A DNA stretch of 64,000 nt from an uncultured Acidobacteriota bacterium (GCA_963729875.1 CAVSPR010000002.1:287082-351081), one strand, 5' to 3'. Shown: positions 12,608 to 55,355, counted from the first letter of the stretch. Notes: generated by a model from the letters alone, not told the origin. A program made the numbers and translations.

Positions 12608-12626
12608 AATCCGCGGGGAGCACCGC

Positions 12627-14366: not shown

Positions 14367-14388
14367 AATCCTCCCGAGGTCTTTGCCC

Positions 14389-29947: not shown

Positions 29948-30490
29948 ATGGGTGGTGTGCGCATCCTCGAGTGGCTGGCCCCGGCCGTCCCCGACGAGGC
30001 GGTGGACTGGGACGCCGCTTACCGCGAGGAAATGCCCCGCGTCTTCAGCTACTTGCGCTACCGGGGCTTCGAGCGGGCGACGGCCGAGGACCTGACCTCG
30101 GCCACGTTCGAGAAGGCCTGGCGGGCGCGGGAGCGCTACCGGAAGGACCGGGCCGCCGTCTCGACCTGGCTCCTGGCGATCGCCCGCAACGTCGCGATCG
30201 ACCACCTCCGGCGCTCGCGTCGAGAGGTCCCGATCGAGGACGAGACCCTCCGCGACGAGGCGACCCCCGAGGCGGCGGCGCTGCGAAGCGCCGAGTTCGG
30301 GAGGCTCCGGGCGCTCGTCGGGGCGCTCCCGGAGCGCGAGCGCGAGATCCTCGCCCTCAAGTACGGGGCGGGCGCCACCAACCGTGCCATCGCGACGCTC
30401 ACCGGGCTCGGCGAGTCGAACGTGGGGACAATCCTGCACCGCACGATCGGCACGCTGCGCGCCCGGTGGGACGAAGGAGGAGCACAGTGA
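29948..30490 (+). CDS. ECF (sigma-70 family, group 4) RNA polymerase sigma factor
   Basis: 180 aa. Region 2 (VFSYLRYRGFERATAEDLTSATFEKAW, STWLLAIARNVAIDHLR) and region 4 (ILALKYGAGATNRAIATLTGLGESNVGTILHR). Confidence 0.92.
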   Translation: MGGVRILEWLAPAVPDEAVDWDAAYREEMPRVFSYLRYRGFERATAEDLTSATFEKAWRARERYRKDRAAVSTWLLAIARNVAIDHLRRSRREVPIEDETLRDEATPEAAALRSAEFGRLRALVGALPEREREILALKYGAGATNRAIATLTGLGESNVGTILHRTIGTLRARWDEGGAQ

Positions 30491-31524
30491 GCGACGACTT
30501 CCTGTCCCGTCTCCGCGAGGAGCCCCGCCCCGAGTTCGCCGGGCGGCTCGAGGACCGCCTTCACGAGATCGACGCGAGGGAGCGCGAGCGCCGCCTCGCG
30601 CCGGGCCCCTTCCGCCGCCTCGCCCCCGCGCTCGCGGGGGCCGGCCTCGTGGCCGCGGTGGCCCTCGCCTTCACCCTCGAGCCGGTGCGGGCGGCGGCGA
30701 TCGAGTTCCTCGACCTGTTCCGCGTGAAGCGCTTCGCCGCGGTACCGGTGGACCCCGAGCGGCTCGCTCGGCTGGCCCAGGGGGGCCTCGACCTCAAGAC
30801 GCTGGTCGCCGAGCAGGTGCAGGTCGTGGTGGCGCCGCAGCCCCCGCAGGTCGTGGACAGCCCCGAGGCCGGGGCGGTCGCGGCCGGCATCACGGCCCGG
30901 CTGCCCGGCGTCCTGCCGGAGCGCACTGGGCTCGCCGAGACCAAGCTCAGCCCGTCCGCCGCCTTCCGCGTCCAGGTGGACACGGGCAAGCTCGAGGCGC
31001 TCGCCCTCGCCGCGGGCGCCGACGAGATCGAGATCCCCGCCTTCTGGAACGGGGCGACGATCGACGTCGAGGTGCCGCCGGTGCTGGGCGTGCGCTACGC
31101 GCGCACGATCGAGGCGGTCGACGGGAGGCCCTCTCGCGAGGAGAGCTTCGTCCTCCTCCAGTCGGCGATCCCGCAGGTGGAGCTGCCCGAGGGCTTCGAC
31201 CTCGCGACGCTCGGGCGCCTCGGGCTGAGGCTCGCCGGCATGAGCGCGACCGAGGCCGAGAGCTTCTCCCGCGCGATCGACTGGCGCTCGACTCTCCTCG
31301 TGCCGGTGCCGGTCCAGGGCGGGACCTTCCGGGAGGTCGAGGTGTCCGGCCACCAGGGCCTCTTCGTGGTCTACCAGCCGCCGGCCCCCGCCGACCCGTC
31401 CGCTCGTCGCCCGCGCTCGCAGGGGCTCGTCCTGTGGTCGACGGACGACGCGGTGCTCGCGCTCCAGGGCCCGGCGTCCCGCGACGGCATCGAGCTGCTC
31501 GAGATGGCGCAGTCGGTCCGGTAG
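30487..31524 (+). CDS. putative membrane-anchored anti-sigma factor / DUF4367-like protein
   Basis: GTG 30487 (GTGA overlap with the sigma gene) in ORF 29911..31524. Short cytoplasmic N-terminus, one TM helix (LAPALAGAGLVAAVALAF) and a ~270-aa extracytoplasmic domain. The role is inferred from position only. Confidence 0.65.
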   Translation: MSDDFLSRLREEPRPEFAGRLEDRLHEIDARERERRLAPGPFRRLAPALAGAGLVAAVALAFTLEPVRAAAIEFLDLFRVKRFAAVPVDPERLARLAQGGLDLKTLVAEQVQVVVAPQPPQVVDSPEAGAVAAGITARLPGVLPERTGLAETKLSPSAAFRVQVDTGKLEALALAAGADEIEIPAFWNGATIDVEVPPVLGVRYARTIEAVDGRPSREESFVLLQSAIPQVELPEGFDLATLGRLGLRLAGMSATEAESFSRAIDWRSTLLVPVPVQGGTFREVEVSGHQGLFVVYQPPAPADPSARRPRSQGLVLWSTDDAVLALQGPASRDGIELLEMAQSVR

Positions 31525-31527
31525 GCC

Positions 31528-32427
31528 GTGGCCGAGCCCGCCCTCGAGGCCCGCGCGCTCCGCAAGGACTTCGGGGCGAAGACCGCGGTCCGGGACCTCA
31601 CCCTGTCCGTCCCGAGGGGTGAGGTCTTCGGCTTCCTCGGCCCGAACGGGGCGGGCAAGACGACGTCCATGAAGATGCTGCTCGGCCTCGTCCACCCGAC
31701 GGCGGGGGGAGGCCGCCTCCTCGGGGCTCCGATCGGCGCCCCGAAGGCCCGGGCCCGCGTCGGCTACCTGCCCGAGCACTTCGCCTTCCACGAGTGGCTC
31801 CGTGGCCGCGAGCTGCTGCGCTTCCACGGGCGCCTCCTCGGCCATGGCGGCCCTGCGCTCGAGGCGGAGATCGAGAGCCTGCTCCGCCGCGTCGAGCTCG
31901 TCGAGGCCGGCGATCGCTGCCTCCGCGAGTACAGCAAGGGCATGAAGCAGCGGATCGGCCTCGCCCAGGCCCTCCTCGGCGAGCCCGAGCTCGTCTTCCT
32001 CGACGAGCCCACCTCGGGCCTCGACCCGCTCGGCCGCCTCCTCGTCCGCGACGTGATCCGCGAGCTCAAGGCCCGCGGCACGACCGTGTTCCTGAACTCC
32101 CACCTCCTGAGCGAGGTCGAGGTCACCTGCGACCGGGTCGCCTTCGTGAAGGACGGGCGGGTCGTACGCGAGATGACGCTGGGCGCGTCCGAGCGAGACC
32201 TCGAGGTCGAGCTCCGCCTCGACCGCGTCTCGCCGGCGATCCTCGAGGGCCTCGGCCGCTTCGGCGGCGACGTGCGGGAGGACGGCCCGCTCGTGCGCCT
32301 GCGCGTCGCCGGGGAGGCGCAGCTGCCGGAGCTGAGCCGGTGGCTGGCCGCCCAGGGCGTCGGGCTCTACCGCCTGGCGGCCCGGCGTCGCTCGCTGGAG
32401 GACGTGTTCCTCGAGGTGGTGCGATGA
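31528..32427 (+). CDS. ABC transporter ATP-binding protein (ABC-2 type)
   Basis: 299 aa. Walker A GPNGAGKTT, signature YSKGMKQRIGLAQAL, Walker B LVFLDEPTSGLD. Confidence 0.93.
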   Translation: MAEPALEARALRKDFGAKTAVRDLTLSVPRGEVFGFLGPNGAGKTTSMKMLLGLVHPTAGGGRLLGAPIGAPKARARVGYLPEHFAFHEWLRGRELLRFHGRLLGHGGPALEAEIESLLRRVELVEAGDRCLREYSKGMKQRIGLAQALLGEPELVFLDEPTSGLDPLGRLLVRDVIRELKARGTTVFLNSHLLSEVEVTCDRVAFVKDGRVVREMTLGASERDLEVELRLDRVSPAILEGLGRFGGDVREDGPLVRLRVAGEAQLPELSRWLAAQGVGLYRLAARRRSLEDVFLEVVR

Positions 32428-33257
32428 GGGCCGCGCTCACGATCGCCCACCTGACTCTGGCCGAGGCGCGCCGCCGGCGCCTCCTCGCCGCCGCGCTCGT
32501 CCTCGGGGCGGCCTTCGTCCTCCTCTTCGGTGTCGGCTTCCACTTCATCGTCCGCGACATACGGGAGCACGGCGCCTCGCCGGCCCAGCAGCGCTTCGTG
32601 CTGAGCTTCATCGTGATGGCCGCTCTCTACGCCGCGAACTTCCTCATCGTGATGACGTCGGTCCTCGTCACGATCGACACCCTGGCGGGGGAGATCGGCT
32701 CGGGAGTGATCGAGGCGCTGTGCACGAAGCCGGTCCCCCGCTGGGCGGTGGTCCTCGGCAAGTGGCTCGGCTGCTGGGCGATCCTGGCGATGTACGCGAC
32801 GCTCCTGTGCGGGGGCGTCCTCCTCGTGGCCCGGCTCGTGGGCGGCTACACGCCCCCGAACGCCGCGCTCGGCCTGCCGCTCCTTCTCCTGGAGGGGACG
32901 GTCCTGCTGACCCTCGCCCTCGCCGGGGGCACGCGCCTGTCGACCCTGGCGAACGGCGTGACCGTGTTCGGCCTGTACGGCCTCGCCTTCGTCGGCGGCT
33001 GGATGGAGCAGGTCGGCACGCTCGCGAGCAACCCGACCGCGCGCTACATCGGGATCGGGGCGAGCCTCCTCGTGCCGAGCGAGTCGCTGTGGCAGCTGGC
33101 CGCGCACACCATGCAGCCGCCGATCGTGCGCAACCTCGGCATCGGGCCCTTCTCGCCCGTCTCGGTGCCCAGCCCGGCCATGGTGGCGTGGGCCGCCGGC
33201 TACGTGCTCGTCACCCTCGCCGTGGCCCTGCGCCTCTTCCGCACCCGGGACCTCTAG
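32424..33257 (+). CDS. ABC-2 family transporter permease
   Basis: ATG 32424 (ATGA overlap) in ORF 31794..33257. 277 aa with about 6 TM segments. Confidence 0.8.
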   Translation: MRAALTIAHLTLAEARRRRLLAAALVLGAAFVLLFGVGFHFIVRDIREHGASPAQQRFVLSFIVMAALYAANFLIVMTSVLVTIDTLAGEIGSGVIEALCTKPVPRWAVVLGKWLGCWAILAMYATLLCGGVLLVARLVGGYTPPNAALGLPLLLLEGTVLLTLALAGGTRLSTLANGVTVFGLYGLAFVGGWMEQVGTLASNPTARYIGIGASLLVPSESLWQLAAHTMQPPIVRNLGIGPFSPVSVPSPAMVAWAAGYVLVTLAVALRLFRTRDL

Positions 33258-33530
33258 GCTGCCCCGATAGCCCGACGGAGCCATTCCATTCACACGTGAG
33301 CTCAGGGCATCTTGTCTCCTGAGCACCTCGAACCTCTGCCCGGGCGTGATCTGGCTCACAGTCGCGCGGAGGGGGCAGGGATCAGTGATCACGAGCACCT
33401 TGCATCGAGCGCACCTATCGATAGTATTCGGGCTCTCGTTCTGTGCGGTGGGCCCGGGTGAGTCGCCACCGGGGTGCATTCGAGGTCCGGGACGCGTTCC
33501 CGAGGGCCTTTGACAAAAGGGGGCGTGGGA

Positions 33531-34403
33531 GTGTCCAAGCGCGACGGGGCATACGGCGTCTTCCTGACGCTCCTCTACGTCGCGGGGGCCGCCCTCGTGC
33601 TCGCCACCCTGGCCCAGGGCCTCGACTTCTACCGTACGCCGCTCCTCGAGCGGGCCCACCACCAGGGCTACTGGGAATGGAAGGCGGGCGGCTCGGTCGG
33701 CCACAAGCTGGGCGTCGCCGGCTCCTCGATGATGGTCCTCATGCTCCTCTACTCCGTCCGCAAGAGGGTGGGGGCGCTCCGGCGGCTCGGTCCGCTCAGC
33801 CGCTGGCTGGACGTGCACATCTTCCTCGGCGTCGTCGGCCCCCTCCTGGTCGTCCTCCACTCCAGCTTCAAGGTCCAGGGGCTCGTGGCGCTGAGCTTCT
33901 GGTCGATGGTCGTCGTGGCTTCGAGCGGGGTCCTCGGCCGCTACCTGTACCTCCAGATCCCCCGCACGCGCGCCGGCGAGGAGCAGACCTTCCTGGAGCT
34001 CGAAGCGGAGGACCGCGAGCTCTCCGAGCAGCTGCGGACCCGCTTCCGCCTCGACGAGGCCCAGGTCGCCCGGCTCGACGCCCTGGTCGATGTCCCGGTG
34101 CGCGCCGGCCTTCTCGCCGGGTTCATCCGGCTGGTCACGGACGACCTGCGCCTGCGGTCGGCCCTGCGCGGGTTCGCGAGGGACTGCCGGTCGGTTCCCC
34201 GGACCGTCTTCCGCGACTTCGAGCGGGTCGTGCGCCAGAAGGCCCAGGCGCACCGCCGCATCCTGCTCTGGGCCCGGGTGCACGAGCTATTCCACTACTG
34301 GCACGTGCTCCACAAGCCCTTCGCGCTGGTGATGTACCTGTTCATGATCGTGCACGTGGCGGTGGCGTTCGTCACCGGCTACGGCTGGGGGGGGCGGCCG
34401 TGA
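33531..34403 (+). CDS. integral membrane protein, predicted di-haem b-type cytochrome (two TM helices each with H-x13-H)
   Basis: ORF 33474..34403; GTG 33531 (or 33474). About 5 TM segments. HIFLGVVGPLLVVLH and HKPFALVMYLFMIVH each place two His 14 positions apart inside hydrophobic helices. GTGA overlap with the following cytochrome gene. Confidence 0.7.
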   Translation: MSKRDGAYGVFLTLLYVAGAALVLATLAQGLDFYRTPLLERAHHQGYWEWKAGGSVGHKLGVAGSSMMVLMLLYSVRKRVGALRRLGPLSRWLDVHIFLGVVGPLLVVLHSSFKVQGLVALSFWSMVVVASSGVLGRYLYLQIPRTRAGEEQTFLELEAEDRELSEQLRTRFRLDEAQVARLDALVDVPVRAGLLAGFIRLVTDDLRLRSALRGFARDCRSVPRTVFRDFERVVRQKAQAHRRILLWARVHELFHYWHVLHKPFALVMYLFMIVHVAVAFVTGYGWGGRP

Positions 34404-36031
34404 GCCGACGCCTCGCCACGGCGCTGGCTCTCGGCCTGGCGGGTCTCGCCGCGCCCTCCGCCCGCGCGCAGATCTCGCCCGGCCCCCTGAGCCGTGCCCA
34501 CGCGAAGCTCGAGGGCAGCACCCGCTGCCTCGACTGCCACGACGCCGGGCAGGGCGTCGCTCCCGCCAAGTGCCTCGCGTGCCACAAGCCGCTGCAGGAG
34601 CGCGTCGCGGCCGGCCGGGGGCTGCACGCGCGGGCCGACTACCGGGACTGCAAGACGTGCCACGTCGAGCACCAGGGCGTCGAGTACGAGCTCGTCTGGT
34701 GGGGCAAGGCGGGCAAGAGGGCCTTCGACCACGCGCAGACGGGGCACCCGCTCGCCGGGAAGCACGCGACCCTCTCCTGCGAGCAGTGCCACAAGACCCG
34801 CTCCTACCTTGGGAACGTCACCGACTGCGCTTCCTGCCACAAGGACGAGCACCGGGGCCAGTTCACCGGGCGCCCCTGCTCCTCCTGCCACACGGAGCAA
34901 GCGTGGAAGCCGGCCGTCGGCTTCGACCACGCGAAGACGGCGTGGCCCCTCACCGGGCGGCACGCCGCGGTGGGCTGCGAGAAGTGCCACGCGACCCGCC
35001 GGCCCGACCCCGCGAACGTCGCGGTTTCCTATCGCGTCTTCAGGGCCGTCGCGGGAAAGGACTGTGCGAGCTGCCACGAGGACAGCCACAAGGGCCGTCT
35101 CGGCAGCGCCTGCGCGACGTGCCACACGACCTCGGGCTGGCGCGGCGCGGTCGTCGCGAAGGGCTTCGACCACGCGAAGACGGCGTATGCGCTGACCGGG
35201 CGCCACGCCACGGTGAGCTGCGAGAAGTGCCACGTGCCGGGCCGGCCGATGCGGGTGAAGCACGACCGCTGCACCGACTGCCACGCCGACGCGCACGCGG
35301 GGACCCTCGCCCGGCGGGCGGACGGGGGCCGCTGCGAGGGCTGCCACGACGTGAACGGCTTCCGCCCGGCCCGCTTCGGGCCCGAGGACCACGCGAAGAC
35401 GGCCTACCCGCTCGCCGGGGCCCACCTCGCCGTGGCCTGCGACCAGTGCCACCGGCCCGCGAGGTCCCCCGGCGGCGTCACGACCGTGCCGCTCCACCTC
35501 GCGTCCACCCGCTGCGCCGACTGCCACAAGGACCCGCACCAGGGCGAGGCGGCGCGCGTCGTCGCGAAGGGCGGCTGCGAGTCGTGCCACCGCGTGGAAT
35601 CGTGGCGCCAGGTGGCCTTCGACCACGGCCAGACCCGCTACCCGCTCTCCGGCGGCCACGTTCGCGTCGGGTGCGTCTCCTGCCACCGCCCGGCCGCCGC
35701 CGGTCCGCCGGCCCGCCTCCGCTTCGCCGGCGTGCCGCAGGCCTGCGAGGGCTGCCACCGCGACCCCCACCAGGGCCAGTTCGCGCAGGCGGGCGGCACG
35801 GTGTCGTGCGAGCGCTGCCACACGACGGACAACCTGAAGGCGTCGAAGTTCGATCACTCGCGCGACGCCGCGTACAAGCTCGACGGGGCCCACGCGCGCC
35901 TCGCCTGCGCGGCCTGCCACCGCCCCGAGACCCGGAGCGGCGTGACGTTCATCCGCTATAAGCCGCTCCCCACGACGTGCCGCGGCTGCCATGGCCCCCG
36001 CGGGCAGCCCGGAAACGGAGAACGCCCATGA
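34400..36031 (+). CDS. multihaem c-type cytochrome, 20 CxxCH motifs, Sec signal peptide
   Basis: GTG 34400 in ORF 33443..36031. Signal peptide VSRRLATALALGLAGLAAPSARAQ. I counted 20 CxxCH sites, arranged as repeats of FDH..T.(Y/W)PL.G.H....C..CH, the doubled-CXXCH type. Confidence 0.92.
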   Translation: MSRRLATALALGLAGLAAPSARAQISPGPLSRAHAKLEGSTRCLDCHDAGQGVAPAKCLACHKPLQERVAAGRGLHARADYRDCKTCHVEHQGVEYELVWWGKAGKRAFDHAQTGHPLAGKHATLSCEQCHKTRSYLGNVTDCASCHKDEHRGQFTGRPCSSCHTEQAWKPAVGFDHAKTAWPLTGRHAAVGCEKCHATRRPDPANVAVSYRVFRAVAGKDCASCHEDSHKGRLGSACATCHTTSGWRGAVVAKGFDHAKTAYALTGRHATVSCEKCHVPGRPMRVKHDRCTDCHADAHAGTLARRADGGRCEGCHDVNGFRPARFGPEDHAKTAYPLAGAHLAVACDQCHRPARSPGGVTTVPLHLASTRCADCHKDPHQGEAARVVAKGGCESCHRVESWRQVAFDHGQTRYPLSGGHVRVGCVSCHRPAAAGPPARLRFAGVPQACEGCHRDPHQGQFAQAGGTVSCERCHTTDNLKASKFDHSRDAAYKLDGAHARLACAACHRPETRSGVTFIRYKPLPTTCRGCHGPRGQPGNGERP

Positions 36032-37758
36032 GACCTCCGATCCTCGCCGCAGGAATCGCCGTGCTGGCCCTGGTGCCGATCCTGGTCGCGCGCGGGCAGA
36101 GCCCGAGCGACGAGCCCCACGGCGGCCTGCAGCTCGACTGCGCCGAGTGCCACAACCCCGAGAAGTGGGTCCCGGTCGTGAAGCCCCCCACGTTCCGCCA
36201 CGAGACGACCGGCTTCGCCCTCCAGTCGACGCACGCGCAGGTGTCGTGCCGCGGTTGCCATCGCACGCTCGTCTTCAACCGGGTGGGCACGGCCTGCGCG
36301 GACTGCCACAAGGACGCGCACCGCGGCGAGATGGGCTTCCAGTGCGACGCGTGCCACACCCCGACCACCTGGAGTAACCAGCGGGAGATGTTCCAGGTCC
36401 ACAGCCGCACCCGCTTCCCTCTCTTCGCCTCCCACGCCCGCCTCGACTGCCAGGCGTGCCACAAGAGCCAGAAGCCCTACGAGTACAAGAACACGCCCGC
36501 CGAGTGCGGCAACTGCCACCTCGAGACGTGGGAGCAGACGGCGAACCCGCCCCACGCCCAGTCCGGCTTCTCGCGGCGCTGCGAGGACTGCCACAACATC
36601 ACCTCGCCGACCTGGCACAGCGCGAACTTCTCGCACCCGGCGTCCTTCCCTCTCGCGGGTGGCCACGCCGGCCTCGCCTGCGCGCGCTGCCACGTGGGCG
36701 GCGTCTACGCCGGGACGTCCTCGGCCTGCGTGTCGTGCCATCAGGCCAGCTACCAGGCGGCCGCGAACCCCAACCACGTGGCCGGGCGCTTCCCCACGAC
36801 CTGCGAAGGCTGCCACACGATCAACGGCTGGCGCCCCGCCAAGTTCGACCACGACCAGACCCGCTACCCCCTGACCGGCGCCCACACCCGGGTGGACTGC
36901 GCGAAGTGCCACGTGGGCGGCCGCTACACGGGGACGCCGACGGACTGCTACTCGTGCCACCAGCCGGACTACGCGCGGACGACGAACCCCAACCACCAGG
37001 CGTCCGGTTTCCCCACGCAGTGCCAGAGCTGCCACAACACGGGTGCCTGGAAGCCCGCGAACTTCGACCACAACGCCACGCGGTTCCCCCTGACCGGCGC
37101 CCACACCCGGGTGGACTGCACGAAGTGCCACGTGGGCGGCCGCTACACGGGCACGCCGACGGACTGCTACTCGTGCCACCAGGCGAACTACGCGGGCGCG
37201 ACGAACCCCAACCACCAGGCCTCCGCGTTCCCGACCCAGTGCCAGACCTGCCACACCACCTCGGCCTGGCGCCCCGCCACCGTCGACCACAGCAAGACAC
37301 GCTTCCCGCTGACGGGGGCCCACACCCGCGTGGACTGCACGAAGTGCCACGTGGGGGGCCGCTACACGGGCACGCCGACGGACTGCTACTCGTGCCACCA
37401 GGCGAACTACGCGGGCACGACGAACCCCAACCACCAGGCGGCCAACTTCCCGGTCCAGTGCCAGAGCTGCCACACGACGAGCGCCTGGCGGCCGGCGAGC
37501 TTCGACCACGACGGGCGGTACTTTCCGATCTACTCCGGGACGCACCGTGGGAAGTGGTCGAGCTGCGGCGAGTGCCACGTCAACTCCGGTAACTACCGGG
37601 TCTTCGAGTGCATCCTGTGTCACGAGCACTCGAACCGCACCGAGGTGGACGGCAAGCACAAGGGCGTCAGCGGCTACAACTACACCAGCAGCGCCTGCTA
37701 CCAGTGCCACCGTAACGGGCGGGCCGACGACGCGGGCGGCTTCGGACGGCTGCCGTGA
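36028..37758 (+). CDS. multihaem c-type cytochrome, 22 CxxCH motifs, Sec signal peptide
   Basis: ATG 36028 (ATGA overlap) in ORF 35977..37758. Signal peptide MRPPILAAGIAVLALVPILVARGQ. 22 CxxCH sites counted. Contains four tandem 73-aa three-haem modules. Confidence 0.92.
   Translation: MRPPILAAGIAVLALVPILVARGQSPSDEPHGGLQLDCAECHNPEKWVPVVKPPTFRHETTGFALQSTHAQVSCRGCHRTLVFNRVGTACADCHKDAHRGEMGFQCDACHTPTTWSNQREMFQVHSRTRFPLFASHARLDCQACHKSQKPYEYKNTPAECGNCHLETWEQTANPPHAQSGFSRRCEDCHNITSPTWHSANFSHPASFPLAGGHAGLACARCHVGGVYAGTSSACVSCHQASYQAAANPNHVAGRFPTTCEGCHTINGWRPAKFDHDQTRYPLTGAHTRVDCAKCHVGGRYTGTPTDCYSCHQPDYARTTNPNHQASGFPTQCQSCHNTGAWKPANFDHNATRFPLTGAHTRVDCTKCHVGGRYTGTPTDCYSCHQANYAGATNPNHQASAFPTQCQTCHTTSAWRPATVDHSKTRFPLTGAHTRVDCTKCHVGGRYTGTPTDCYSCHQANYAGTTNPNHQAANFPVQCQSCHTTSAWRPASFDHDGRYFPIYSGTHRGKWSSCGECHVNSGNYRVFECILCHEHSNRTEVDGKHKGVSGYNYTSSACYQCHRNGRADDAGGFGRLP
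36652..37527 (+). repeat. four tandem 219-bp (73-codon) coding repeats; the last three nearly identical at DNA level
   Basis: The motif ctgaccggcgcccacacccgggtggactgc(g/a)cgaagtgccacgtgggcggccgctacacggg recurs at 36871, 37090 and 37309 (period exactly 219). A diverged copy sits at 36652. Confidence 0.85.
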
Positions 37759-37769
37759 GGGGGGACGCC

Positions 37770-39807
37770 ATGCGCCTGATGCGACACGCGACGCTGCTGC
37801 TGGCCCTCGCCCTGACGCCGGTCGCCCCCTCCCGCGGCGAGCCGCGCTTCGTCGTCACCTCCCGCTCGCTGGCCACCGTCACTGTCGATGCCGGACGAGC
37901 CGACGGCCTCGGCGTGGGCGACAAGCTCCGGGTGGTCGAGGGCCCGCGGATCATCGGGGAACTCGAGGTCGTCTCGGCTGCCGAGCGGTGGTCGTCCTGC
38001 CGCGTGCTGTCCGTCACCCGACCGATCGCCACGGGCGACGTCGTGGTCCGCCCGGCCGGGCCACTGCCGGCCACGGCGACCTCCGCTTCGACCGCCCGAC
38101 CCCACACCCGCACCCACGCCCACGCCCACACCCACACCCACACCCACACCCACACCCACACCCACACCGCGGGCGGCGCCCCAGGCTGTTCCGTCGACTG
38201 TCGCTCCGCCGGCCGCGGTCCCGGCGGGCAGTTCGAAGTTCACGGTGAAATACCGCTCGGCGGCCAACGTCTATCTCGACGGGGGTCGGGCCGCGGGCCT
38301 CGAGGTCGGCGACCGACTCCGCGTCGTCTCGGGGCAGGACACGGTCGCGGAGCTGGAGGTCGCCTACGCCGCCGAGATGTCGGCGTCGTGCCGCGTCGTC
38401 TCGGAGACGCGCCCGGTGCGCGCGGGCGACGTCGCCGTTCGGCTCGGTGCACCACGGGCCGCGACCGCGCCGCCCGTGGCCACCCCGGCACCGTCCCCCT
38501 CGGCCGCACCCGCGACGCGCGCACCCGCAGCGGCACCCGAGGAGCCGCGGCCGTCCACACCGTGGGCCCGCGTGCGCGGCTACGCCTCGTTTGGCTACTA
38601 CAAGAGCTGGGACGAGACGGAGTACGCCCTCGACTTCGAGGAGCGCACGGCCCGGGTCGAGATCGGCGTCTACGACATCGCCCGGCAGCCGCTGAGCTTC
38701 ACGCTGCGCGGCCGCAGCCGGGAGGACGTGCGGGCGCGCACCCTCAGCTCCCGCACGCCTTCGAGCGAGCGCACCGACCGGCTCTACGAGGTCGCCCTGC
38801 GCTACGAGCCGCCATCGGACAAGGTGGGCCTCGAGGTGGGCCGCATCGGGATCTACCGCTTCGTCGGCATCGGGTACCTCGACGGGTTCCTCGGGCGCTT
38901 CCGCCCCCTGCCCGACCTGCAGGTTGGTGCCTTCGGCGGCCGGGTCGCCGACATCGAGGGCCTCGGCTTCGACGGCACCGGCTCGAAGTACGGCGGCTTC
39001 GTGCGCCTGGCCCCGGGCGGGCGCTGGGCGACGGGCGGATACGACGTCATGCTCGCCTTCGTCCGCGAGGACGCCGAGGGGGAGGTGAGCCGCGAGTACC
39101 TCAGCCTGGAGAGCCGGCTCGGGCAGGGCAGCCGCTGGTCGCTGTTCCAGCGGGCCGAGCTCGACCTCAACACCGGGTGGAGGAAGGACGTCACCGGAAA
39201 GAGCACGCAGCTCTCCAACGTCTCGCTCTCGGGCAACCTGCGCGTCACCCCGTCGGCCTGGGCTTTCGTCTCCTACGACGGCCGGCGGAACTACCGGTAC
39301 TACCGCAACCGGGTCGTCCCCGAGGAGGTGTTCGACGACCTGCTCCACCAGGGGCTGCGCGCCGGCGTCAACCTCTCACGGCCCGGCGGCTTCGGGGCGA
39401 CGGCGGGGTTCGGGATGAGCCTCAAGGAGCCCGACCCGCGCCACCCCGAGCTCGACATCGCGAACGCGTACTCGGGCAACGTCGGCGTGCGGCACGCCGA
39501 CGTGTTCGCCTCGGGCTTCTCGGTCGGCCTCGACGGGACCGGCTTCACGAACGGCTACACCGAGGGTGGGCTCGTGATGGCCCGCCTCGGGCGCCGCTTC
39601 GCCGCCGGCCACATGGTGGACCTCTCCTACGGCCGCTCGGTCTACCGGGTTAAGCTCACGGAGGAGGACCGCACGACGCAGTGGCTGCGCCTCGTGGGCC
39701 GCGGCGAGCTGGGACGACGGGTGTACGTGCAGGTGGACTTCGAGTACGACACGGGAGACGACCTGAAGGGCCCGCGGGCATTCGCCGAGGTCGGGGTCCG
39801 CTTCTGA
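37770..39807 (+). CDS. outer-membrane beta-barrel protein with duplicated N-terminal domain and Pro-Thr linker; frame broken by 1-nt indel
   Basis: The frame of ORF 37755 gives a signal peptide (MRLMRHATLLLALALTPVAPSRG) and domain 1 (FVVTSRSLATVTVDAGRADGLGVGDKLRVV...CRVLSVTRPIATGDVVV). The frame of ORF 37888 gives the (PT)n linker, homologous domain 2 (FTVKYRSAANVYLDGGRAAGLEVGDRLRVV...CRVVSETRPVRAGDVAV) and a ~470-aa region of alternating beta-strand pattern ending ...FAEVGVRF (C-terminal Phe). The frames must join between ~38050 and ~38100. Confidence 0.75.
38101..38166 (+). repeat. hexanucleotide microsatellite (CCCACA-like)x11, 7 perfect consecutive units; encodes a Pro-Thr linker
   Basis: cccaca cccgca cccacg cccacg followed by (cccaca)x7. 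It reads PTPAPTPT(PT)7 in the frame that continues into the beta-barrel. Confidence 0.95.
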
Positions 39808-39811
39808 GGCG

Positions 39812-41173
39812 GTGGTGACCGGCGAGGTCCTCATCTGGGGCGTATCGCTCGCCGCGGTGGCGGCGATCGTCCTGCCGTACGTGCTCTCCTTCCGCCAGCG
39901 TCGGCACGCCGACCGCTCGCGCAAGGAGGAGGCGGTGCGCCTCGGGGTCGATCGCCCCCAGGCGCAGTTCCCCTTCATCGACCCGATGCGCTGCATCGGC
40001 TGCGGGACCTGCGTCGACGCCTGCCCCGAGGGGGACGTTCTCGGCATCGTCGGCGGGACGGCGACGGTCGTGAACGGGCTGCGCTGCGTGGGCCACGGCC
40101 GGTGCGAGATCGCGTGCCCGGTGGGCGCGATCGAGGTCGGCCTCGGCGACCTGAAGCTGCGGAAGGACATCCCGCGGCTCGACGAGTGGCAGCAGACCAC
40201 CGTGCCCGGGGTCTTCGTCGCGGGGGAGCTCGGCGGGCTCGCCCTCGTCAAGAACGCGATCGCCCAGGCCCGCCAGGTCGTGGACCGAGTGGCCCAGCTC
40301 GCGCCGGCTTCCCGAGCGGCGAGCGGCGGCGACGTGCTCGACGTCGTGATCGTGGGGGCGGGGCCGGCCGGGCTGACCGCGGCGGCGGCGGCCCGCGAGC
40401 GCGGGCTCTCCCACGTGGTCCTCGAGCAGGAGGGCGACCTCGGGGGGACGATCTTCCACTACCCGCGGCGCAAGCTCGTCCTCGTCCAGGCGGTGGATAT
40501 GCCGATCCTCGGCCGCCTGCGCGAGGGCGAGTACGCGAAGGAAGACCTTCTGGCGGTCCTGCAGGACGTGTGCCGCCGCGGCGACCTCCGGGTCCGCTTC
40601 GGAGAGCGAGTCCTGGGCCTCGAGCGGAGCGGCGGCGTGTTCGCGGTTCGCAGCACGTCCGGCGTGACCCTCTCCCGCTTCGTCGTCCTGGCCCTGGGCC
40701 GCAGGGGCACGCCCCGCAGGCTCGGGGCGCCCGGCGAGGAGCTGCCCAAGGTCATGTACCAGCTGACCGACGCCGAGTCCTACGAGCAGCAGCGCATCCT
40801 CGTCGTCGGCGGAGGCGACAGCGCGGTCGAGGCTGCCCTCGGCCTCGCCCGCCAGCGGGGCAACCGCGTCACCCTGTCCTACCGGCGCGAGAAGCTCGTC
40901 CGCATCAAGAAGAAGAACGAGCAGCGGATCGGCGAGCTGCTCGCCAATCGGCGGATCGAGGCCGCCTTCGAGACCGAGGTCGAGCGGATCGCGCCGTCGT
41001 CGGTACGGCTGAAGGCACCCGGCGGCGTGCGAGAGCTGCCGAACGACTATGTCTTCGTTTTCGCCGGCGGAGAGCCGCCCTTCGACCTGCTGCGCCAGAT
41101 GGGCATCCGGTTCGGGGGCGACGCCTCGCCCGTGCCTACCGCGCCGGCTCGAACGTCAGGCTCGCGGAGTTGA
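39812..41173 (+). CDS. membrane-anchored 2x[4Fe-4S]-ferredoxin-domain + FAD/NAD(P)-binding oxidoreductase (thioredoxin-reductase-like fold)
   Basis: 453 aa. N-terminal TM helix. [12 protein letters not shown] and [12 protein letters not shown] (His replaces the second Cys). Two Rossmann motifs ([14 protein letters not shown]; [14 protein letters not shown]). Confidence 0.88.
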
Positions 41174-41648
41174 CGCAGTAGCGCAGGCCGGTCGGCCTCG
41201 GGCCGTCGTCGAAGACGTGGCCGAGGTGCCCGCGGCAACGCCGGCAGAGAACCTCGACCCGGCGCTCGAAGAGGCTGTCGTCCGTCTCGGTCGCAACCGC
41301 GTCCTTCGTGATCGGCTGCCAGAAGCTCGGCCAGCCGGTGCCCGAGTCGAACTTCGCGACCGAGGAGAAGAGCGGCGCCCCGCACGCCGCGCAGCGGTAG
41401 GTCCCGTCCTCGTGGTGGTCCCAGTAGCGGCCGGTGAAGGCCCGCTCGGTGCCCTTCTGCCGCAGCACCTGGTACTGAAGCGGCGGGAGCTGCCGGCGCC
41501 ACGCCTTGTCCGACTTCACGACCATGGCCGGAGTGGACCACCCCGGCGTGCGGGTCACGGCGTCCTTGCGCGGACCAGGGCGGAACACGAGGAGCCAGAC
41601 TGCGAGGGTCAGGCACAGGGCGGTGGCCAGGGCGAGGAGGCGGGGCAC
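41136..41648 (-). CDS. msrB: peptide-methionine (R)-S-oxide reductase MsrB with N-terminal membrane anchor/signal
   Basis: 170 aa. [36 protein letters not shown]...GWPSFW...[16 protein letters not shown]...RYCVNS. Its 3' end overlaps the convergent gene by 38 nt. Confidence 0.93.
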
Positions 41649-41690: not shown

Positions 41691-42950
41691 CTACGCGCTC
41701 GCCGTTGCCCGGGCTTCCTCGTACATGGCCAGCACGTTCTCGGTCGGGGTGCGAGCCTGGATGTTGTGAATGGTGTTGAAGACGAAGCCGCCGCCCCGGC
41801 CGAAGATGCGGATGCGCTCGCGGACCTCGGCTCGCACCTCGTCTGCGGTCCCGAACGGCAGCGTCTTCTGCGTGTCGACCCCCCCGCCCCAGAAGACGAG
41901 CCTCTCGCCGTACCTCGCCTTCAGGGTCGCCGCGTCCATGCCCGCCGCCGAGCACTGCACGGGGTTCAGGATGTCGACCCCGGCCTCCACGAAGGCGTCG
42001 AGGAGGGGGGCGATCGCACCGCAGGAGTGGAAGAAGACCTTCCAGGGCGTGTTCTGGTGCACCCAGTCGTTGAGCTTCCGGTAGATTGGCTTCCAGAGAC
42101 GGTCGAACAGCTTCGGTGAGCAGAGAGGCCGCTGCTGGCCGCCGAAGTCCGTGCCGCTCATGGCGAGGACTTCGATGCGGTCGCCCACGACCTGCCGGTA
42201 GAGCTCGAGGTTCTTCAGGGCGACCTCGGCCTGGAGCTCGAAGATCCCGAGGATGTAGTCGGTGTGGGTGAGGAGGTACTCGTACCAGAGGTTCGGGTCC
42301 CGCAGGCCCTTCGGGTGCCTGAGACCGGGACCGGGCACGTGGGCGATGTCCCCGATACCGCCCTGCCAGAAGTTGCCGACGAGGGCGTAGCCCGTCTCGG
42401 AATGGAGCCGCGTCGCCGCGTCCTCGAAGTGCCGCAGCTCCTCGTCCGTGAAGCGCGTGAACTGCTCGGCCCAGTCCCGCGGGTCCAGACTCTCCTCGTC
42501 GATCGGCTCCTGCCGCACGATCGAGTCGAAGTAGTAGCCGTCCTTCGGCAGCCTGGCCGAGGGGCGGGCGGTGCGGTCTCCCTTCGGGTAGATGAGCGTG
42601 TCTCCGGTCGCGTCGACGTCGATCTGGAAGTCGCGCGGGACGAGGGCGGGGGTACCGTCGGGCAGGCTCCACGGCTTCCAGCCCTCGTTGCGGAACCCGA
42701 ACATGTTCGTGGGGCTCCAGATGCCGATCGTGTCGACGCCGAGGGCGCAGCGGACGGGCTCCTCGACCTCGGCCAGGATCTGGAACGGCTCGCCGATGGT
42801 CACCGGGGCCTCGCCGAGGCCGAGGGCCTTCCGCACCCGGTAATACGTGCTCGCCTGGATGCCGGTCACCGGCGTGCTGCCGAGGTCGATCGGGGGTCGG
42901 TCGGTCTCCTCGCGCCGCAGCGCTTTGCGGACCCGCTCGCGTCCGTTCAT
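41691..42950 (-). CDS. URO-D family protein (MtaA/MtbA-type corrinoid methyltransferase-like)
   Basis: 419 aa. MNGRERVRKALRREETDRPPIDLGSTPVTGI..., FFHSCGAIAPLLDAFVEAGVDILNPVQ. ATGA overlap with the upstream corrinoid-protein gene. Confidence 0.8.
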   Translation of the reverse strand: MNGRERVRKALRREETDRPPIDLGSTPVTGIQASTYYRVRKALGLGEAPVTIGEPFQILAEVEEPVRCALGVDTIGIWSPTNMFGFRNEGWKPWSLPDGTPALVPRDFQIDVDATGDTLIYPKGDRTARPSARLPKDGYYFDSIVRQEPIDEESLDPRDWAEQFTRFTDEELRHFEDAATRLHSETGYALVGNFWQGGIGDIAHVPGPGLRHPKGLRDPNLWYEYLLTHTDYILGIFELQAEVALKNLELYRQVVGDRIEVLAMSGTDFGGQQRPLCSPKLFDRLWKPIYRKLNDWVHQNTPWKVFFHSCGAIAPLLDAFVEAGVDILNPVQCSAAGMDAATLKARYGERLVFWGGGVDTQKTLPFGTADEVRAEVRERIRIFGRGGGFVFNTIHNIQARTPTENVLAMYEEARATASA

Positions 42951-43594
42951 GGAGCGCCCTGGCCGACGAGGCGACGGGCGAGTGCCACCGCCCCGGCCGC
43001 GTCCTCGGCGTAGCCGTCGGCGCCGATCTCGGCGGCCAGCTTCTGGTTGACGGGGGCGCCGCCGACCATGACCCCGACCTTGTCCCGCAGGCCGGCCGCC
43101 TTCAGCTGCTCGATGGTCACCTTCATGCTCGGCAGCGTCGTGGTCAGGAGGGCGGAGAGCACGATCAGGCTGACGTCGCCGCCGCGCGCCGCTTCGACGA
43201 AGGCCTCCGGTGCCACGTCCGCGCCGAGGTCGCGCACCTCGAAGCCCGCCCCCTCGAGCATCATGCAGACGAGGTTCTTCCCTATGTCGTGGAGGTCACC
43301 CTTGACCGTGCCGGCCACCACGGTGCCCGCCGGCTTCACGTCGGTCGCGACCAGGCGGGGCCGCAGGACCGCCAGGGCCCCCTTCATGGCCCGAGCGGAG
43401 ATGAGCATCTCGGGGAGGAAGTAGTCGCCGCACTCGTAGCGGCGGCCCACCTCGTCCATCGCAGGTACCATCACGTCCCGCAGGATCGCCCCCGGCTCGG
43501 CCCCCGCGTCGAGGGCGGCCCGGACGAGCGTGGCCGCGTCCTTCGCCTGCCCCTCCTCGATGGCCCTCTTCAGGGAGTCGAGCACGCCCTTCAC
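42947..43594 (-). CDS. cobalamin (B12)-binding corrinoid protein, MtaC/MtbC-like
   Basis: GTG 43594 (SD GAGGAGG 5 nt upstream) in ORF 42947..44083. B12-binding_2 helical cap plus Rossmann domain with the DxHxxG motif (KGDLHDIGKN) and the GG motif (VMVGGAP). The rest of the 378-aa ORF is upstream read-through. Confidence 0.85.
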   Translation of the reverse strand: MKGVLDSLKRAIEEGQAKDAATLVRAALDAGAEPGAILRDVMVPAMDEVGRRYECGDYFLPEMLISARAMKGALAVLRPRLVATDVKPAGTVVAGTVKGDLHDIGKNLVCMMLEGAGFEVRDLGADVAPEAFVEAARGGDVSLIVLSALLTTTLPSMKVTIEQLKAAGLRDKVGVMVGGAPVNQKLAAEIGADGYAEDAAGAVALARRLVGQGAP

Positions 43595-43691
43595 CGCGAC
43601 CTCCTCGCCATGCGTTCCCGCCGTCGCGCGCCATCCTACACCCGGGCGGGCGGCGCCTATATACTCCCGCTCACCGTCGCACGGAGGCAGG

Positions 43692-45071
43692 ATGGACACC
43701 GGGGAAAGAGCGGGACGTGCGGGCGGATGGAGCCGGCTGGGCCTCGCGACCGCGGGTCTCGTGGCCCTCGGGGCGCTCGTCGCTTCCCTGGCGTGGGCCG
43801 TCGAGTGGCCCGTGGCCGGCCTGCTCGGCCGCTGGACGCTCGTCGCCGGCCTCGCGCTCTGGGCGTACGGGCGGCGCTCCCTCACCGCCTGGATCCTCTT
43901 CTCGATGGTGGTGGGCGCCGAGATCGGCCACGACTGGCCGCAAACCGCCGTGGCCATGCGCCTCCTCAGCCAGATCTTCATACGGATGATCAAGACGATC
44001 ATCGCCCCGCTGCTCTTCGCGACGCTCGTCGTCGGGATCGCCGGCCACCCGAACCTGCGGCACGTGGGGCGGATGGGCATCAAGGCGCTCGTCTACTTCG
44101 AGGTCGTCACCACACTCGCCCTCTTCATCGGGCTCGCCGCCATCAACCTCACGAAGGCGGGCGTGGGCGTGCAGCCGCCGGAGGGCCTGCAGCCCGCCGG
44201 GGTCTCTGCCCCGAGGCAGGCGGTCAGCGACGTCATCCTCCACGCCTTCCCGGAGAACGTCGCGAAGTCGGTGGCGGAGGGGCAGGTCCTGCAGATCGTC
44301 GTCTTCAGCGTGCTCTTCGCGGTCGCGCTCTCGCTCCTGTCCGACGAGAAGCGCCGGCCCCTGCTCGCCCTCGCGGAGTCGCTGGCCGCCACCATGTTCA
44401 AGTTCACGAACCTGGTGATGCTCTTCGCACCGGTCGGCGTGGGCGCGGCGATCGCCTACACGGTGGGGCACATGGGCCTCGGCATCCTCGTGAACCTCGC
44501 CAAGGCCCTGGCGACGTTCTACCTGGCGCTCCTCTCGTTCCTGGTGCTGGTGCTCCTGCCGATCGCCCTCGTCGCGAAGGTGCCGATCCGGCGCTTCCTG
44601 AAGGCCATCGCCGAGCCGGTCTCGATCGCCTTCGCCACCACGAGCTCGGAGGCGGCGCTGCCCCTCGCGATGGAGCGCATGGAGGAGTTCGGCGTGCCGC
44701 GGCAGACCGTGGCCTTCGTCATGCCTACCGGCTACAGCTTCAACCTCGACGGCTCGACGCTCTACCTCGCCCTCGCGTCCGTGTTCGTGGCCCAGGCCGC
44801 CGACATCCACCTCTCCTTCGCGCAGCAGCTGATGATCGTCTTCATGCTCATGATCACGAGCAAGGGTGTCGCCGGGGTGCCGCGGGCCGTGCTCGTGATC
44901 CTGATGGGCACCGCGTCGTCCTTCGGGCTGCCCGAGTGGCCGATCCTCGCCCTCCTCGGCATCGACGAGCTCATGGACATGGCCCGCACCTCGGTCAACG
45001 TCATCGGCAACTGCCTCGCCACGGTCGTCGTCGCCCGGTGGGAGGGGGAGTACCCGCCGCCCGGGAGGTGA
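43692..45071 (+). CDS. dicarboxylate/amino acid:cation symporter (DAACS; GltP/DctA family)
   Basis: ATG 43692 (SD ggagg) in ORF 43530..45071. IRMIKTIIAPLLFATLVVGIAG, FATTSSEAALP, MPTGYSFNLDGSTLY, ITSKGVAGVP. Confidence 0.92.
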   Translation: MDTGERAGRAGGWSRLGLATAGLVALGALVASLAWAVEWPVAGLLGRWTLVAGLALWAYGRRSLTAWILFSMVVGAEIGHDWPQTAVAMRLLSQIFIRMIKTIIAPLLFATLVVGIAGHPNLRHVGRMGIKALVYFEVVTTLALFIGLAAINLTKAGVGVQPPEGLQPAGVSAPRQAVSDVILHAFPENVAKSVAEGQVLQIVVFSVLFAVALSLLSDEKRRPLLALAESLAATMFKFTNLVMLFAPVGVGAAIAYTVGHMGLGILVNLAKALATFYLALLSFLVLVLLPIALVAKVPIRRFLKAIAEPVSIAFATTSSEAALPLAMERMEEFGVPRQTVAFVMPTGYSFNLDGSTLYLALASVFVAQAADIHLSFAQQLMIVFMLMITSKGVAGVPRAVLVILMGTASSFGLPEWPILALLGIDELMDMARTSVNVIGNCLATVVVARWEGEYPPPGR

Positions 45072-50351: not shown

Positions 50352-50406
50352 CGCTGGTCTCCCGGCCGTCACCGGCACCTTGCCCTTCCCCCGCGTCGCC
50401 ATCGCG

Positions 50407-50937
50407 CTACCCGAACCGCAGCTTCGAGCCGAGGTCGGGCTTCCTGCCCTCGAGCAGCTCGCTGAGCACGAGGAGGATCGCATTGGGTTTCGGGGGGCAT
50501 CCGGGGACGTGGATGTCGACCTTCACCACCTCGTGCAGGGGCACCGCCTTCTTGAGGAGCGGCGGGACGCCGTCGGTGGGCACGCCGGGCTTGACGTCGG
50601 CCCCCTCGACGTAGACCCGCTCGAGCAGCTTGCGGGTGGCGATCCCGTTCCGCATCGACGGCACGTTGCTCGTCACCGCGCAGTCCCCGAGGGCCACCAC
50701 GACCTTGCTGCGGGCCCTCGCCAGCTGGGCCAGCTTGAGGTCGTCCTGGCTGCTCACCGCGCCCTCGATCACCGCGACGTCCACCCCCTCCGGCCACTCC
50801 TGCGCGTCCACGAGGGGTCCGAAGACGATCTCCGCCTTGTTGAGGACGGCCACGATCCCCTCGTCCACGTCGAGGAGCGACATGTGGCAGCCGGAGCAGC
50901 CGTCGAGCCAGCAGGTCCCGAGCCGCACCTTGCCCAT
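50407..50937 (-). CDS. hoxY: [NiFe] hydrogenase small subunit (HoxY)
   Basis: ATG 50937 in the tail of ORF 50407..51345. MGKVRLGTCWLDGCSGCHMSLLD...GDCA...VPGCPP. 176 aa. Confidence 0.9.
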   Translation of the reverse strand: MGKVRLGTCWLDGCSGCHMSLLDVDEGIVAVLNKAEIVFGPLVDAQEWPEGVDVAVIEGAVSSQDDLKLAQLARARSKVVVALGDCAVTSNVPSMRNGIATRKLLERVYVEGADVKPGVPTDGVPPLLKKAVPLHEVVKVDIHVPGCPPKPNAILLVLSELLEGRKPDLGSKLRFG

Positions 50938-51644: not shown

Positions 51645-51657
51645 GCCGGGGCCTCCT

Positions 51658-54816: not shown

Positions 54817-55355
54817 CGGCCGCCCTCCTTCCGCAGCTTGTCCACCTCGCGCATGAGCGCCTGCTCTTTCACGTGGCCGCGGATGGCGTGGTTCACCTCG
54901 ACCACCGGGGCGAGCGCGCACTGGCCGAAGCAGGCCACGGTGCGGATCGTGAACCGGCGGTCCGGGGTGGTGAGGGTGAGCTTGTCGGCGCCGCCCGCCT
55001 CTTCCGGAGGACGGGAAAGGCCGAGCTGGAGCTTCAGGCGCTCGAGGAGCGCGCGCGAGCCGCGGGTGTGGCAGGCGGTCCCCCGGCAGATGCTCACGGT
55101 GTGCGTGCCCTGCGGCTCGAGGTTGAAGAGCGCGTAGAAGGTGGCGACGCTGTAGACCTGCGCCTGGGGGACGCCGGTCCTCGCGGCCACGTACTCGAGC
55201 GTCTCCATGGGGAGGTACTTGTTGCGGTGCTGCTCCTGCAGCTTCTCGAGCACGCTGAGGAGCGAGCCGGGGCGGCCGCCCTGCTCCGCGATGACGCGGT
55301 CGAGGAGGTCCTGGTCCTCTACGCGCGGCAGCGCCGTCGCCAGGCTGGTGGTCAT
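54813..55355 (-). CDS. hoxE: diaphorase 2Fe-2S subunit HoxE (NuoE-like)
   Basis: 180 aa. LLSVLEKLQEQHR.YLP, ICRGTACHTRGS, ACFGQCALAPVV. Confidence 0.92.
   Translation of the reverse strand: MTTSLATALPRVEDQDLLDRVIAEQGGRPGSLLSVLEKLQEQHRNKYLPMETLEYVAARTGVPQAQVYSVATFYALFNLEPQGTHTVSICRGTACHTRGSRALLERLKLQLGLSRPPEEAGGADKLTLTTPDRRFTIRTVACFGQCALAPVVEVNHAIRGHVKEQALMREVDKLRKEGGR

Follow-up and report, generated by a model that had tools for sequence, protein, structure and literature searches.

A five-gene cassette of soil Acidobacteriota as a candidate PCC3-like porin-cytochrome conduit with a putative NAD(P)H-linked entry module

Whether electrons are carried across the whole cell envelope, and in which direction, is the question raised by a cluster of five genes in the genome of an uncultured Acidobacteriota bacterium. 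The cluster, called here the cassette, lies in a stretch of 64,000 nucleotides (GCA_963729875.1, CAVSPR010000002.1:287082-351081; hereafter the window), which has a GC content of about 72% throughout. It encodes an inner-membrane putative di-haem b protein (G1), two secreted multihaem cytochromes c (G2 and G3), a predicted outer-membrane barrel (G4) and a membrane-anchored iron-sulphur (FeS)/FAD/NAD(P)H protein (G5). Our analysis indicates that the cassette is real, conserved and uncharacterised, and that the description which suits it best is a PCC3-like porin-cytochrome conduit whose entry module would be NAD(P)H-linked and NOX-like. We consider it likely that the five products form an electron conduit across the envelope.

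The five genes lie on the + strand and their 4-nt overlaps give the cluster an operon-like packing. An earlier interpretation, made without database searches (the sequence-only reading), had described four genes chained by such overlaps and a fifth 4 nt further on, and the junctions agree with it: GTGA at 34400 between G1 and G2, ATGA at 36028 between G2 and G3, GTGA at 37755 between G3 and G4, and a G4 stop codon at 39805-39807 separated by 4 nt from the GTG start of G5 at 39812. The same reading counted five open reading frames (ORFs) on one strand, which is correct for G1, G2, G3 and G5, all of them intact, and has to be amended for G4, which is frameshifted in the assembly.

Comparison of gene neighbourhoods, as had been proposed with the first description, showed that the cassette has been kept together as a unit in different phyla. 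The full G1-G5 order was found in six Vicinamibacteria loci (L001, L003, L007, L009, L017 and L018), and a metagenome-assembled genome (MAG) of Ignavibacteriales (GCA_016214905.1) displays the identical gene order, with 20 and 22 haems in the cytochromes and a barrel ending in Phe. In a Bacteroidota MAG the products are a membrane protein, a TPR-like protein, a 20-haem cytochrome, a 28-haem (+9) cytochrome, a barrel and an FeS/FAD protein. The cassette is also present in a cultured bacterium, Emticicia oligotrophica DSM 17448, on the 100-kb plasmid pEMTOL02 (L020, 78197-90781), in the order ccsA, membrane protein, FeS/FAD protein, 23-haem cytochrome, 40-haem cytochrome and barrel. The Emticicia membrane protein is 33% identical to that of the window and the FeS/FAD protein 41%, while the 23-haem cytochrome shows 36% identity to G2 and the 40-haem cytochrome 46% to G3. 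Its barrel (23% identity, E=3e-14) was found through synteny and pairwise BLAST only, and a tblastn search of plasmids with the barrel gave no match. The ccsA gene beside the Emticicia cassette is a fused cytochrome c biogenesis gene (1028 aa), and a gene for a GW-dipeptide-domain protein comes after the cassette. We found no paper in the literature describing the cassette in Vicinamibacteria or Emticicia.

The cassette also occurs in parts. Stand-alone G3-G4 pairs were detected in L005, L006 and L015, a G1-G2-G5 block without a barrel lies beside a full cassette (L008, 886-4807), and in L011 a G3-G4 pair and a G5-G2-G1 block are arranged divergently. In addition, every barrel gene having upstream sequence sits directly after a G3-type cytochrome gene. 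This splitting into modules indicates that the barrel pairs with G3, and the membrane protein with G2 and G5. One Acidobacteriota MAG (CAWKAS010000005.1, ~172-208 kb; L008/L012) has a G3-G4 pair, a barrel-less G1-G2-G5 block and a full cassette within ~35 kb.

Analysis of the membrane protein gave the closest link to a described system. G1 carries the motifs W92-x3-H96-x13-H110, S132-G-x-x-G136 (SGVLG) and W257-x3-H261-x13-H275, so that the two H-x13-H helices noticed at first are present, with the pairs H96/H110 and H261/H275. In an alignment of 42 sequences, with identity down to 27%, residues G61, Y74, H96, H110, M126, G133, G136, P144, W257, H261 and H275 are invariant, and W92 and S132 are kept in at least 90% of the sequences. 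The AlphaFold2 (AF2) model (pLDDT 91.6, pTM 0.83) has five membrane helices, with a helical, cytoplasmic insert of ~105 residues between the fourth and the fifth. The positive-inside rule would place H96 and H261 towards the cytoplasm and H110 and H275 towards the periplasm, an arrangement that would suit a stack of two b-haems spanning the membrane. The deposited copy of G1 (P0121, 100% identical) is also called at 290 aa. The sequence-only reading could match the cluster to no described system; this goes too far, since G1 shows every motif that He et al. (2017) set for the protein of the inner membrane in the hypothetical clusters PCC3 and PCC4, namely ~300 aa with five transmembrane (TM) helices, of which TM4 carries SGXXG and TM3 and TM5 each carry WX3HX13H (PMC5566968).

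The G1 family is large, with 2859 representatives at 50% identity in an exhaustive HMMER search, and its few named members are annotated as 'hypothetical protein' and come from Ignavibacteriales and Bacteroidota. Family members have Pfam matches to DUF4405, Ferric_reduct and Ni_hydr_CYTB, which appear to stay sub-threshold. G1 itself reaches 22.1 bits against DUF4405 (PF14358), below the gathering cut-off of 26.7, and likewise stays below the cut-off of Ferric_reduct (PF01794); among the 42 relatives, 14 match DUF4405 and six Ferric_reduct at E<=0.01. Binding of haem b has been shown for one DUF4405 protein (PMC11334425).

G5 is composed, from its N-terminus, of a TM helix, a basic patch, a ferredoxin domain and a TrxR/YpdA-type FAD/NAD(P)H domain, and the positive patch after the helix predicts that the domains are in the cytoplasm. 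The ferredoxin domain contains CxxCxxCxxxCP and CxxHxxCxxxCP (7 Cys and 1 His), and the His of the second motif is kept in all orthologues examined (Vicinamibacteria, Ignavibacteriales, Bacteroidota and Emticicia). The N-terminal anchor and the FAD/NAD(P)H fold proposed previously are thus present; the '2x[4Fe-4S]' assignment was an assumption, given the second motif. In the Emticicia protein the first FeS motif is CxxSxxCxxxCP. Pfam assigns Pyr_redox_3 (4e-44) and Fer4 families to G5, and its nearest PDB entries are Bdr (7a7b, 2e-29) and TrxR-type ferredoxin-NADP reductases, whose FAD and NAD(P)H motifs it shares. G5 has no CxxC disulphide outside the FeS motifs and reads GAGPAG where Bdr has GGGPCG; its scores against TIGR04018 and TIGR01292 are 162 bits (cut-off 339.9) and 68.5 bits (cut-off 343). 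A role as YpdA-type bacillithiol-disulphide reductase is ruled out by the Cys to Ala replacement, the ferredoxin fusion and the membrane anchor.

The partners of distant G1 relatives provided further evidence on the input side. Plasmids of Methylophaga (L021) and Acetobacter (L022) encode proteins 26-27% identical to G1 that keep SGxxG and the HX13H pairs, with W-x3 ahead of the last-helix pair only. Each is flanked by a 7-haem cytochrome and by a protein with FAD_binding_6, NAD_binding_1 and 2Fe-2S ferredoxin (Fer2) domains, which is an FNR-type reductase, the kind fused to the NOX/FRE haem domain. The FeS flavoproteins that accompany the membrane protein family are therefore NAD(P)H-dependent in both cases and belong to two unrelated folds, FNR-type and TrxR-type, and this non-homologous replacement of the partner indicates that the conserved job is the transfer of cytoplasmic NAD(P)H electrons onto periplasmic c-haems. 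The first description had left the FeS/FAD protein unexplained; these comparative data point to a function at the entry of electrons, and G5 is probably the point at which NAD(P)H is oxidised. They also suggest that what looks new in the cassette is a split, NOX-like and putatively quinone-independent feed. The Methylophaga and Acetobacter trios sit within copper/heavy-metal resistance islands (CopA/CopB, P-type ATPase, DUF411), which hints that they supply periplasmic reducing power for metal handling.

Of the two cytochromes, G2 contains 20 CxxCH motifs (27.1 aa per haem) and G3 contains 22 (26.2 aa per haem), every Cys belongs to one of these motifs (40 in G2, 44 in G3), and the extra His residues (23 and 24, respectively) are enough for bis-His ligation. 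Sec-type signal peptides were found on both proteins, that of G2 with the cleavage end ARA-Q, and neither has a lipobox or any Cys ahead of the first haem motif, so that the haem counts, the secretion and the lack of lipoboxes given in the sequence-only reading all agree with our data. G2 is made of c7-like modules (Pfam families Cytochrome_C7, Cytochrom_c3_2 and Paired_CXXCH_1), and the Cytochrome_C7 matches of the two cytochromes have E-values of 5e-21 and 3e-30. The repeat of G3 is a 73-residue trihaem unit in which a haem spacing of 32/16/25 recurs. A phmmer search with G2 and G3 gave no significant match in PDB. Among orthologues, G2 proteins have 20 haems in almost all intact loci across three phyla, and G3 proteins have 14-40. 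These numbers suggest that the G3 wire evolves by gain and loss of modules and that the G2 wire is under a length constraint. From the sequences, G2 may be a fixed-length periplasmic bridge and G3 the partner of the barrel, its reach tuned by the gain or loss of trihaem modules.

G4 had been described as a ~680-aa protein with a barrel-like region and a C-terminal Phe. Both of these features are present, but the gene spans 2053 nt (37755-39807) and is not one intact ORF in the assembly. Two extra N-terminal domains had also been noted and were recovered as small domains 56% identical to each other and marginally FlgT_C-like (E=0.01 in part a of G4, 1.6e-6 in the orthologue P0006). In the AF2 model of G4 (pLDDT 73), a small beta domain at the N-terminus is followed by a disordered Pro/Ala linker, and the region from residue 157 to residue 568 contains ~22 strands. 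All PDB matches of this model in Foldseek are outer-membrane barrels (PapC/FimD usher pores, OccD/OprD and AlgE; E ~1e-9, TM 0.3-0.4); MtrB is absent among the 50 best matches. No model in Pfam or NCBIfam covers the barrel or its relatives in any phylum. The best-conserved stretch of the barrel family, RNYRYYxNRxVPEEVFDDLLHQGLRAG, forms the loop after strand 13, which, judging from strand parity in the model, would be extracellular or folded into the lumen. G4 homologues group in 229 clusters, and the labelled ones are from Acidobacteriota, mostly Vicinamibacteria, except for one Betaproteobacteria MAG and one unclassified. These relatives come from MAGs, many of them long-read soil MAGs.

Comparison with known systems places the cassette nearest to PCC3. 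In PCC3 clusters the periplasmic cytochrome has 21-27 haems and the second cytochrome a variable number (10-35), both being repeat-rich with ~26-30 aa per haem, and PCC3 is still called 'functionally unverified' (PMC5566968; PMC10734462). When compared with this published description, G1 (290 aa, five helices, SGXXG and both WX3HX13H motifs) resembles the PCC3 inner-membrane protein, and the cassette likewise has two haem-rich repetitive cytochromes, the location of either being predicted; for the porin of the Leptothrix PCC3, 22 strands were predicted, as modelled for G4 (~22), and both systems are known from genomes only. The cassette differs from PCC3 in having an extra membrane-anchored FeS/FAD/NAD(P)H protein, one or two N-terminal FlgT_C-like domains on the barrel, another gene order and other hosts (Acidobacteriota, Bacteroidota and Ignavibacteria, whereas PCC3 hosts are Proteobacteria); moreover, the proposal for PCC3 is a part in iron oxidation, with an inner-membrane protein that reacts with quinone. 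With MtrCAB, MtoAB and PioAB the cassette shares the proposed plan of a periplasmic multihaem wire placed in an outer-membrane barrel, the genes for the two being adjacent. However, it has no lipoprotein MtrC, its barrel is modelled with ~22 strands instead of 26 and has no sequence-family match, and its input would be a b-haem protein with a flavoprotein rather than a CymA-type quinol dehydrogenase. Membership in the Mtr/Mto/Pio group was rejected because the scores against TIGR03508 (MtrA/DmsE decahaem) are 40.6 bits for G2 and 36.8 for G3, with a cut-off of 192.2, and the haems number 20 and 22, not 10.

The input side is comparable to NOX/FRE and to MsrQ-Fre, in which electrons go from NAD(P)H to a flavin, to two stacked b-haems on two HX13H helices and to an outside acceptor, and the proteobacterial trios use a true FNR-type module. 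In the cassette, by contrast, the dehydrogenase is a separate polypeptide with a TrxR/YpdA fold and an FeS domain, and the acceptor would be a 42-haem relay instead of O2, Fe3+ or MsrP. The wires resemble the 'nanowire' dodecahaems GSU1996 and GSU0592 of Geobacter, which are also tandem trihaem c7-like modules, and the Geobacter Pcc and Ext clusters are of the same porin-cytochrome type; unlike these, the cassette has no lipoprotein outer cytochrome, its cytochromes carry 20-40 haems rather than 8-12, and they score below the cut-off of TIGR04257. The EET1/EET2 clusters of peat Acidobacteriota (2026 preprint) were ruled out, as their cytochromes are 8-13-haem and Mtr/Omc-like. Orthology to a characterised complex, raised with the first description, was not found with NCBIfam models or by phmmer against PDB.

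The mechanism that we propose was inferred in all its steps, including localisation, co-transcription and electron direction, from sequence, models and gene neighbourhoods. G5, on the cytoplasmic face of the inner membrane, would oxidise NAD(P)H at its FAD and pass the electrons through two FeS clusters. G1 would then move them over the inner membrane via two stacked b-haems, as in the NOX/ferric-reductase domain, from the haem at H96/H261 on the cytoplasmic side to that at H110/H275 on the periplasmic side. The 20-haem wire of conserved length, G2, would span the periplasm, and the variable-length wire of trihaem modules, G3, would be threaded through or docked in the ~22-strand G4 barrel, from where electrons could reach acceptors that are extracellular or insoluble, for instance Fe(III)/Mn(IV) minerals or humic material. 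Such a route would bypass the quinone pool and would act as an NAD(P)H-regenerating outlet or a reductive mineral-dissolution device, not as a proton-pumping respiratory chain. The trans-envelope module of the sequence-only reading fits the architecture, the cross-phylum conservation and the barrel model, with the extracellular location of G3 as its predicted part. For the full outward, NAD(P)H-fed mechanism we see even chances. It is a more tentative suggestion that the cassette represents a hitherto unrecognised, phylum-spanning class of machinery for extracellular electron transfer, in which NAD(P)H is wired to the exterior without the quinone pool by an FeS flavoprotein, a NOX-like di-haem b protein, a 20-haem 'ruler' and a 14-40-haem cytochrome in a new barrel family; with the same reserve, the system might then be regarded as a bacterial split NADPH oxidase lengthened by ~42 c-haems.

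Several observations weigh against an outward conduit of this kind. The cassette family is known from genomes and models alone, and with no lipobox or predicted surface-anchoring signal on either cytochrome, G3 is placed outside the cell by prediction only. G1 has no family assignment in Pfam or NCBIfam, where sub-threshold matches to DUF4405 and cytochrome b561 cover its last helix. A Foldseek search with its model against PDB gave nothing at E<0.3 (Dcytb appeared only at E=4.2); the matches are spurious coiled-coil and BAR-domain proteins, with none to NOX, STEAP, MsrQ or cytochrome b. In PDB sequences, phmmer with G1 and a profile of the G1 family found nothing significant. Since no solved fold relative was found, the kinship with NOX/MsrQ rests on motifs and not on fold, and the ~105-aa insert may hide the TM core of G1 in the fold search. 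The ~22-strand barrel is narrower than the 26-strand MtrB, G5 is missing next to the barrel in L005, L006 and L010, and with the frameshift in G4 the cassette could be inactive in this organism. In addition, He et al. proposed for PCC3 a quinone-reactive inner-membrane protein and a function in the oxidation of Fe(II), with electrons running the opposite way (PMC5566968). Electrons might accordingly be taken up by an inward conduit, or come from Fe(II)/Mn(II) oxidation, and go through G1 to the quinone pool, with G5 as an accessory or regulatory redox protein. The motifs that G1 shares with the PCC3/PCC4 inner-membrane protein are compatible with this, PCC3 is found in Fe(II) oxidisers and the gene of its inner-membrane protein went up with iron-oxidising activity, and multihaem porin-cytochrome conduits are in principle reversible. 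We nevertheless regard inward flow as quite unlikely: the relatives of G1 consistently go together with cytoplasmic reductases that depend on NAD(P)H and are of two folds, a linkage that fits outward flow, and no quinone-site motif was identified. The transfer from Fe(II) to NAD(P)+ across an inside-negative membrane is energetically uphill according to established bioenergetics, and would need an energy input that no cassette gene encodes, which argues for the outward direction. To our knowledge, the hosts of the cassette are heterotrophic lineages and not known iron oxidisers, which also counts against the inward conduit.

Electrons could, on the other hand, end in the periplasm, with G1 and G5 feeding G2 and G3 as a store or as reductases of soluble substrates (metal ions, oxyanions), and with G4 as an entry porin or unrelated. 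The barrel-less G1-G2-G5 modules, the proteobacterial trios of the copper-resistance islands, which have no barrel, and the lack of a lipobox on both cytochromes are in line with such an end point, and He et al. considered clusters of a multihaem cytochrome and an inner-membrane protein without a barrel unlikely to serve extracellular transfer (PMC5566968). A periplasmic end point is nonetheless unlikely in our view, because the barrel gene invariably adjoins a G3-type cytochrome gene and was seen in no other genomic context among the loci, G3-G4 pairs occur on their own, and the haem number of G3 varies widely, as in extracellular PCC3 cytochromes. As for the frameshift, a decaying pseudogene cluster, with a conduit that no longer functions here, would explain why the 2053-nt G4 span requires a +1 shift and why the deposited copy (P0001, 100% identical) is called as a truncated fragment of only 520 aa. 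The shift lies at ~38050-38100, just upstream of the (CCCACA)x11.3 repeat, and the downstream reading frame is +1. Read in the wrong frame, the repeat would encode (His-Thr)n; intact orthologues (645-690 aa) have both small domains in one frame with PT/PA-rich linkers, and these linkers fix the correct frame downstream of the break. The identity between the two small domains indicates that both halves of G4 are coding, and both have a high third-position GC. All other cassette genes are intact, and isolated breaks affect different genes in sister long-read MAG loci (G5 in L001, G2 and G4 in L009, several genes in L018), which is the signature of assembly error. Taken with the intact orthologues, these breaks make an assembly error the likeliest cause; we hold it to be very probable and propose a nanopore error, whereas real decay appears very unlikely. 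As slippage of a 6-nt unit cannot change the frame, the break is probably an assembly error of the homopolymer type. The outward conduit is the reading that we prefer for the cassette.

The features of the cassette are listed in the table. The run AAAGGGGG immediately 5' of GTG 33531 resembles a Shine-Dalgarno sequence. A scan for the sigma-70 consensus upstream of the cassette gave no match, the promoter and terminator scans being uninformative at 72% GC, and a scan of the window with Rfam revealed no RNA family.

Table. Positions of the cassette genes and associated features in the window.
Feature	Position	Strand	Remarks
Gap upstream of the cassette, presumed promoter region	33258..33530	+	273 nt; promoter by presumption only
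G1	33531..34403	+	290 aa; an alternative GTG start at 33474 would give 309 aa, but orthologues have 290 aa
G2	34400..36031	+	Secreted cytochrome c, 543 aa, 20 haem motifs
G3	36028..37758	+	Secreted cytochrome c, 576 aa, 22 haem motifs
Tandem repeat within G3	36809..37509	+	Tandem Repeats Finder; 219-nt unit, 3.2 copies, 84% matches; codes for the trihaem modules
G4 part a, frame 0: signal peptide and first small beta domain	37755..38099	+	Translation
(CCCACA)x11.3 hexanucleotide repeat, coding for the (Pro-Thr)n linker of G4	38101..38168	+	
G4 part b, frame +1: PT linker, second small beta domain, Pro/Ala linker and barrel	38098..39807	+	
G5	39812..41173	+	453 aa; TM anchor, ferredoxin domain, FAD/NAD(P)H domain

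The genes around the cassette were also inspected. Directly upstream on the same strand (29948-33257) are genes for an ECF sigma factor, an unannotated ORF of ~400 aa (possibly an anti-sigma factor), an ABC ATPase and an ABC-2 permease; the sigma factor and transporter genes were excluded as parts of the cassette, since only L001, the closest relative, has the same arrangement and more distant cassettes lack it. On the - strand, a convergent MsrB (SelR) gene (41136-41648) overlaps the 3' end of G5 by ~38 nt, which leaves no room for an intrinsic terminator between the two. Next to it (41691-44080, - strand) are adjacent genes for a URO-D-like (MtaA-type) protein and a B12-binding protein, a pair that also occurs beside the L001 cassette and that suggests a corrinoid methyltransferase system. 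About 8 kb downstream of the cassette (48933-55428, - strand) there is an apparent operon for an NAD(P)-linked soluble [NiFe] hydrogenase, with a 1256-aa NuoF-like/GltD-like fusion, a NuoG-like FeS protein and the NiFe large subunit; this hydrogenase could feed the same NAD(P)H pool as the cassette. A large chemotaxis cluster (2339-15198) encodes CheA, an AAA_22 ATPase, CheW, MCP, CheR, a DUF4388/receiver protein and a GAF protein, together with an 804-aa protein that consists almost wholly of HEAT repeats.

In soil, Vicinamibacteria and other Acidobacteriota rank with the most abundant bacteria, and the cassette would concern the way in which they handle oxygen-poor microsites and mineral-bound iron or manganese. 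The main interest of the cassette is that it is widespread in these abundant lineages, that its entry appears to be quinone-independent and that it has a cultured representative: the plasmid-borne cassette of Emticicia oligotrophica DSM 17448 (pEMTOL02) makes the hypothesis directly testable. If the proposal is true, a NOX-like b-haem protein can take the place of a quinol dehydrogenase and supply a porin-cytochrome conduit with electrons from NAD(P)H, and a testable role would be suggested for the unexplained PCC3/PCC4 inner-membrane protein of iron oxidisers. Soil Acidobacteriota, together with many Bacteroidota and Ignavibacteria, could then dump reducing equivalents on minerals or humic matter, which would have a bearing on soil carbon turnover and metal cycling.

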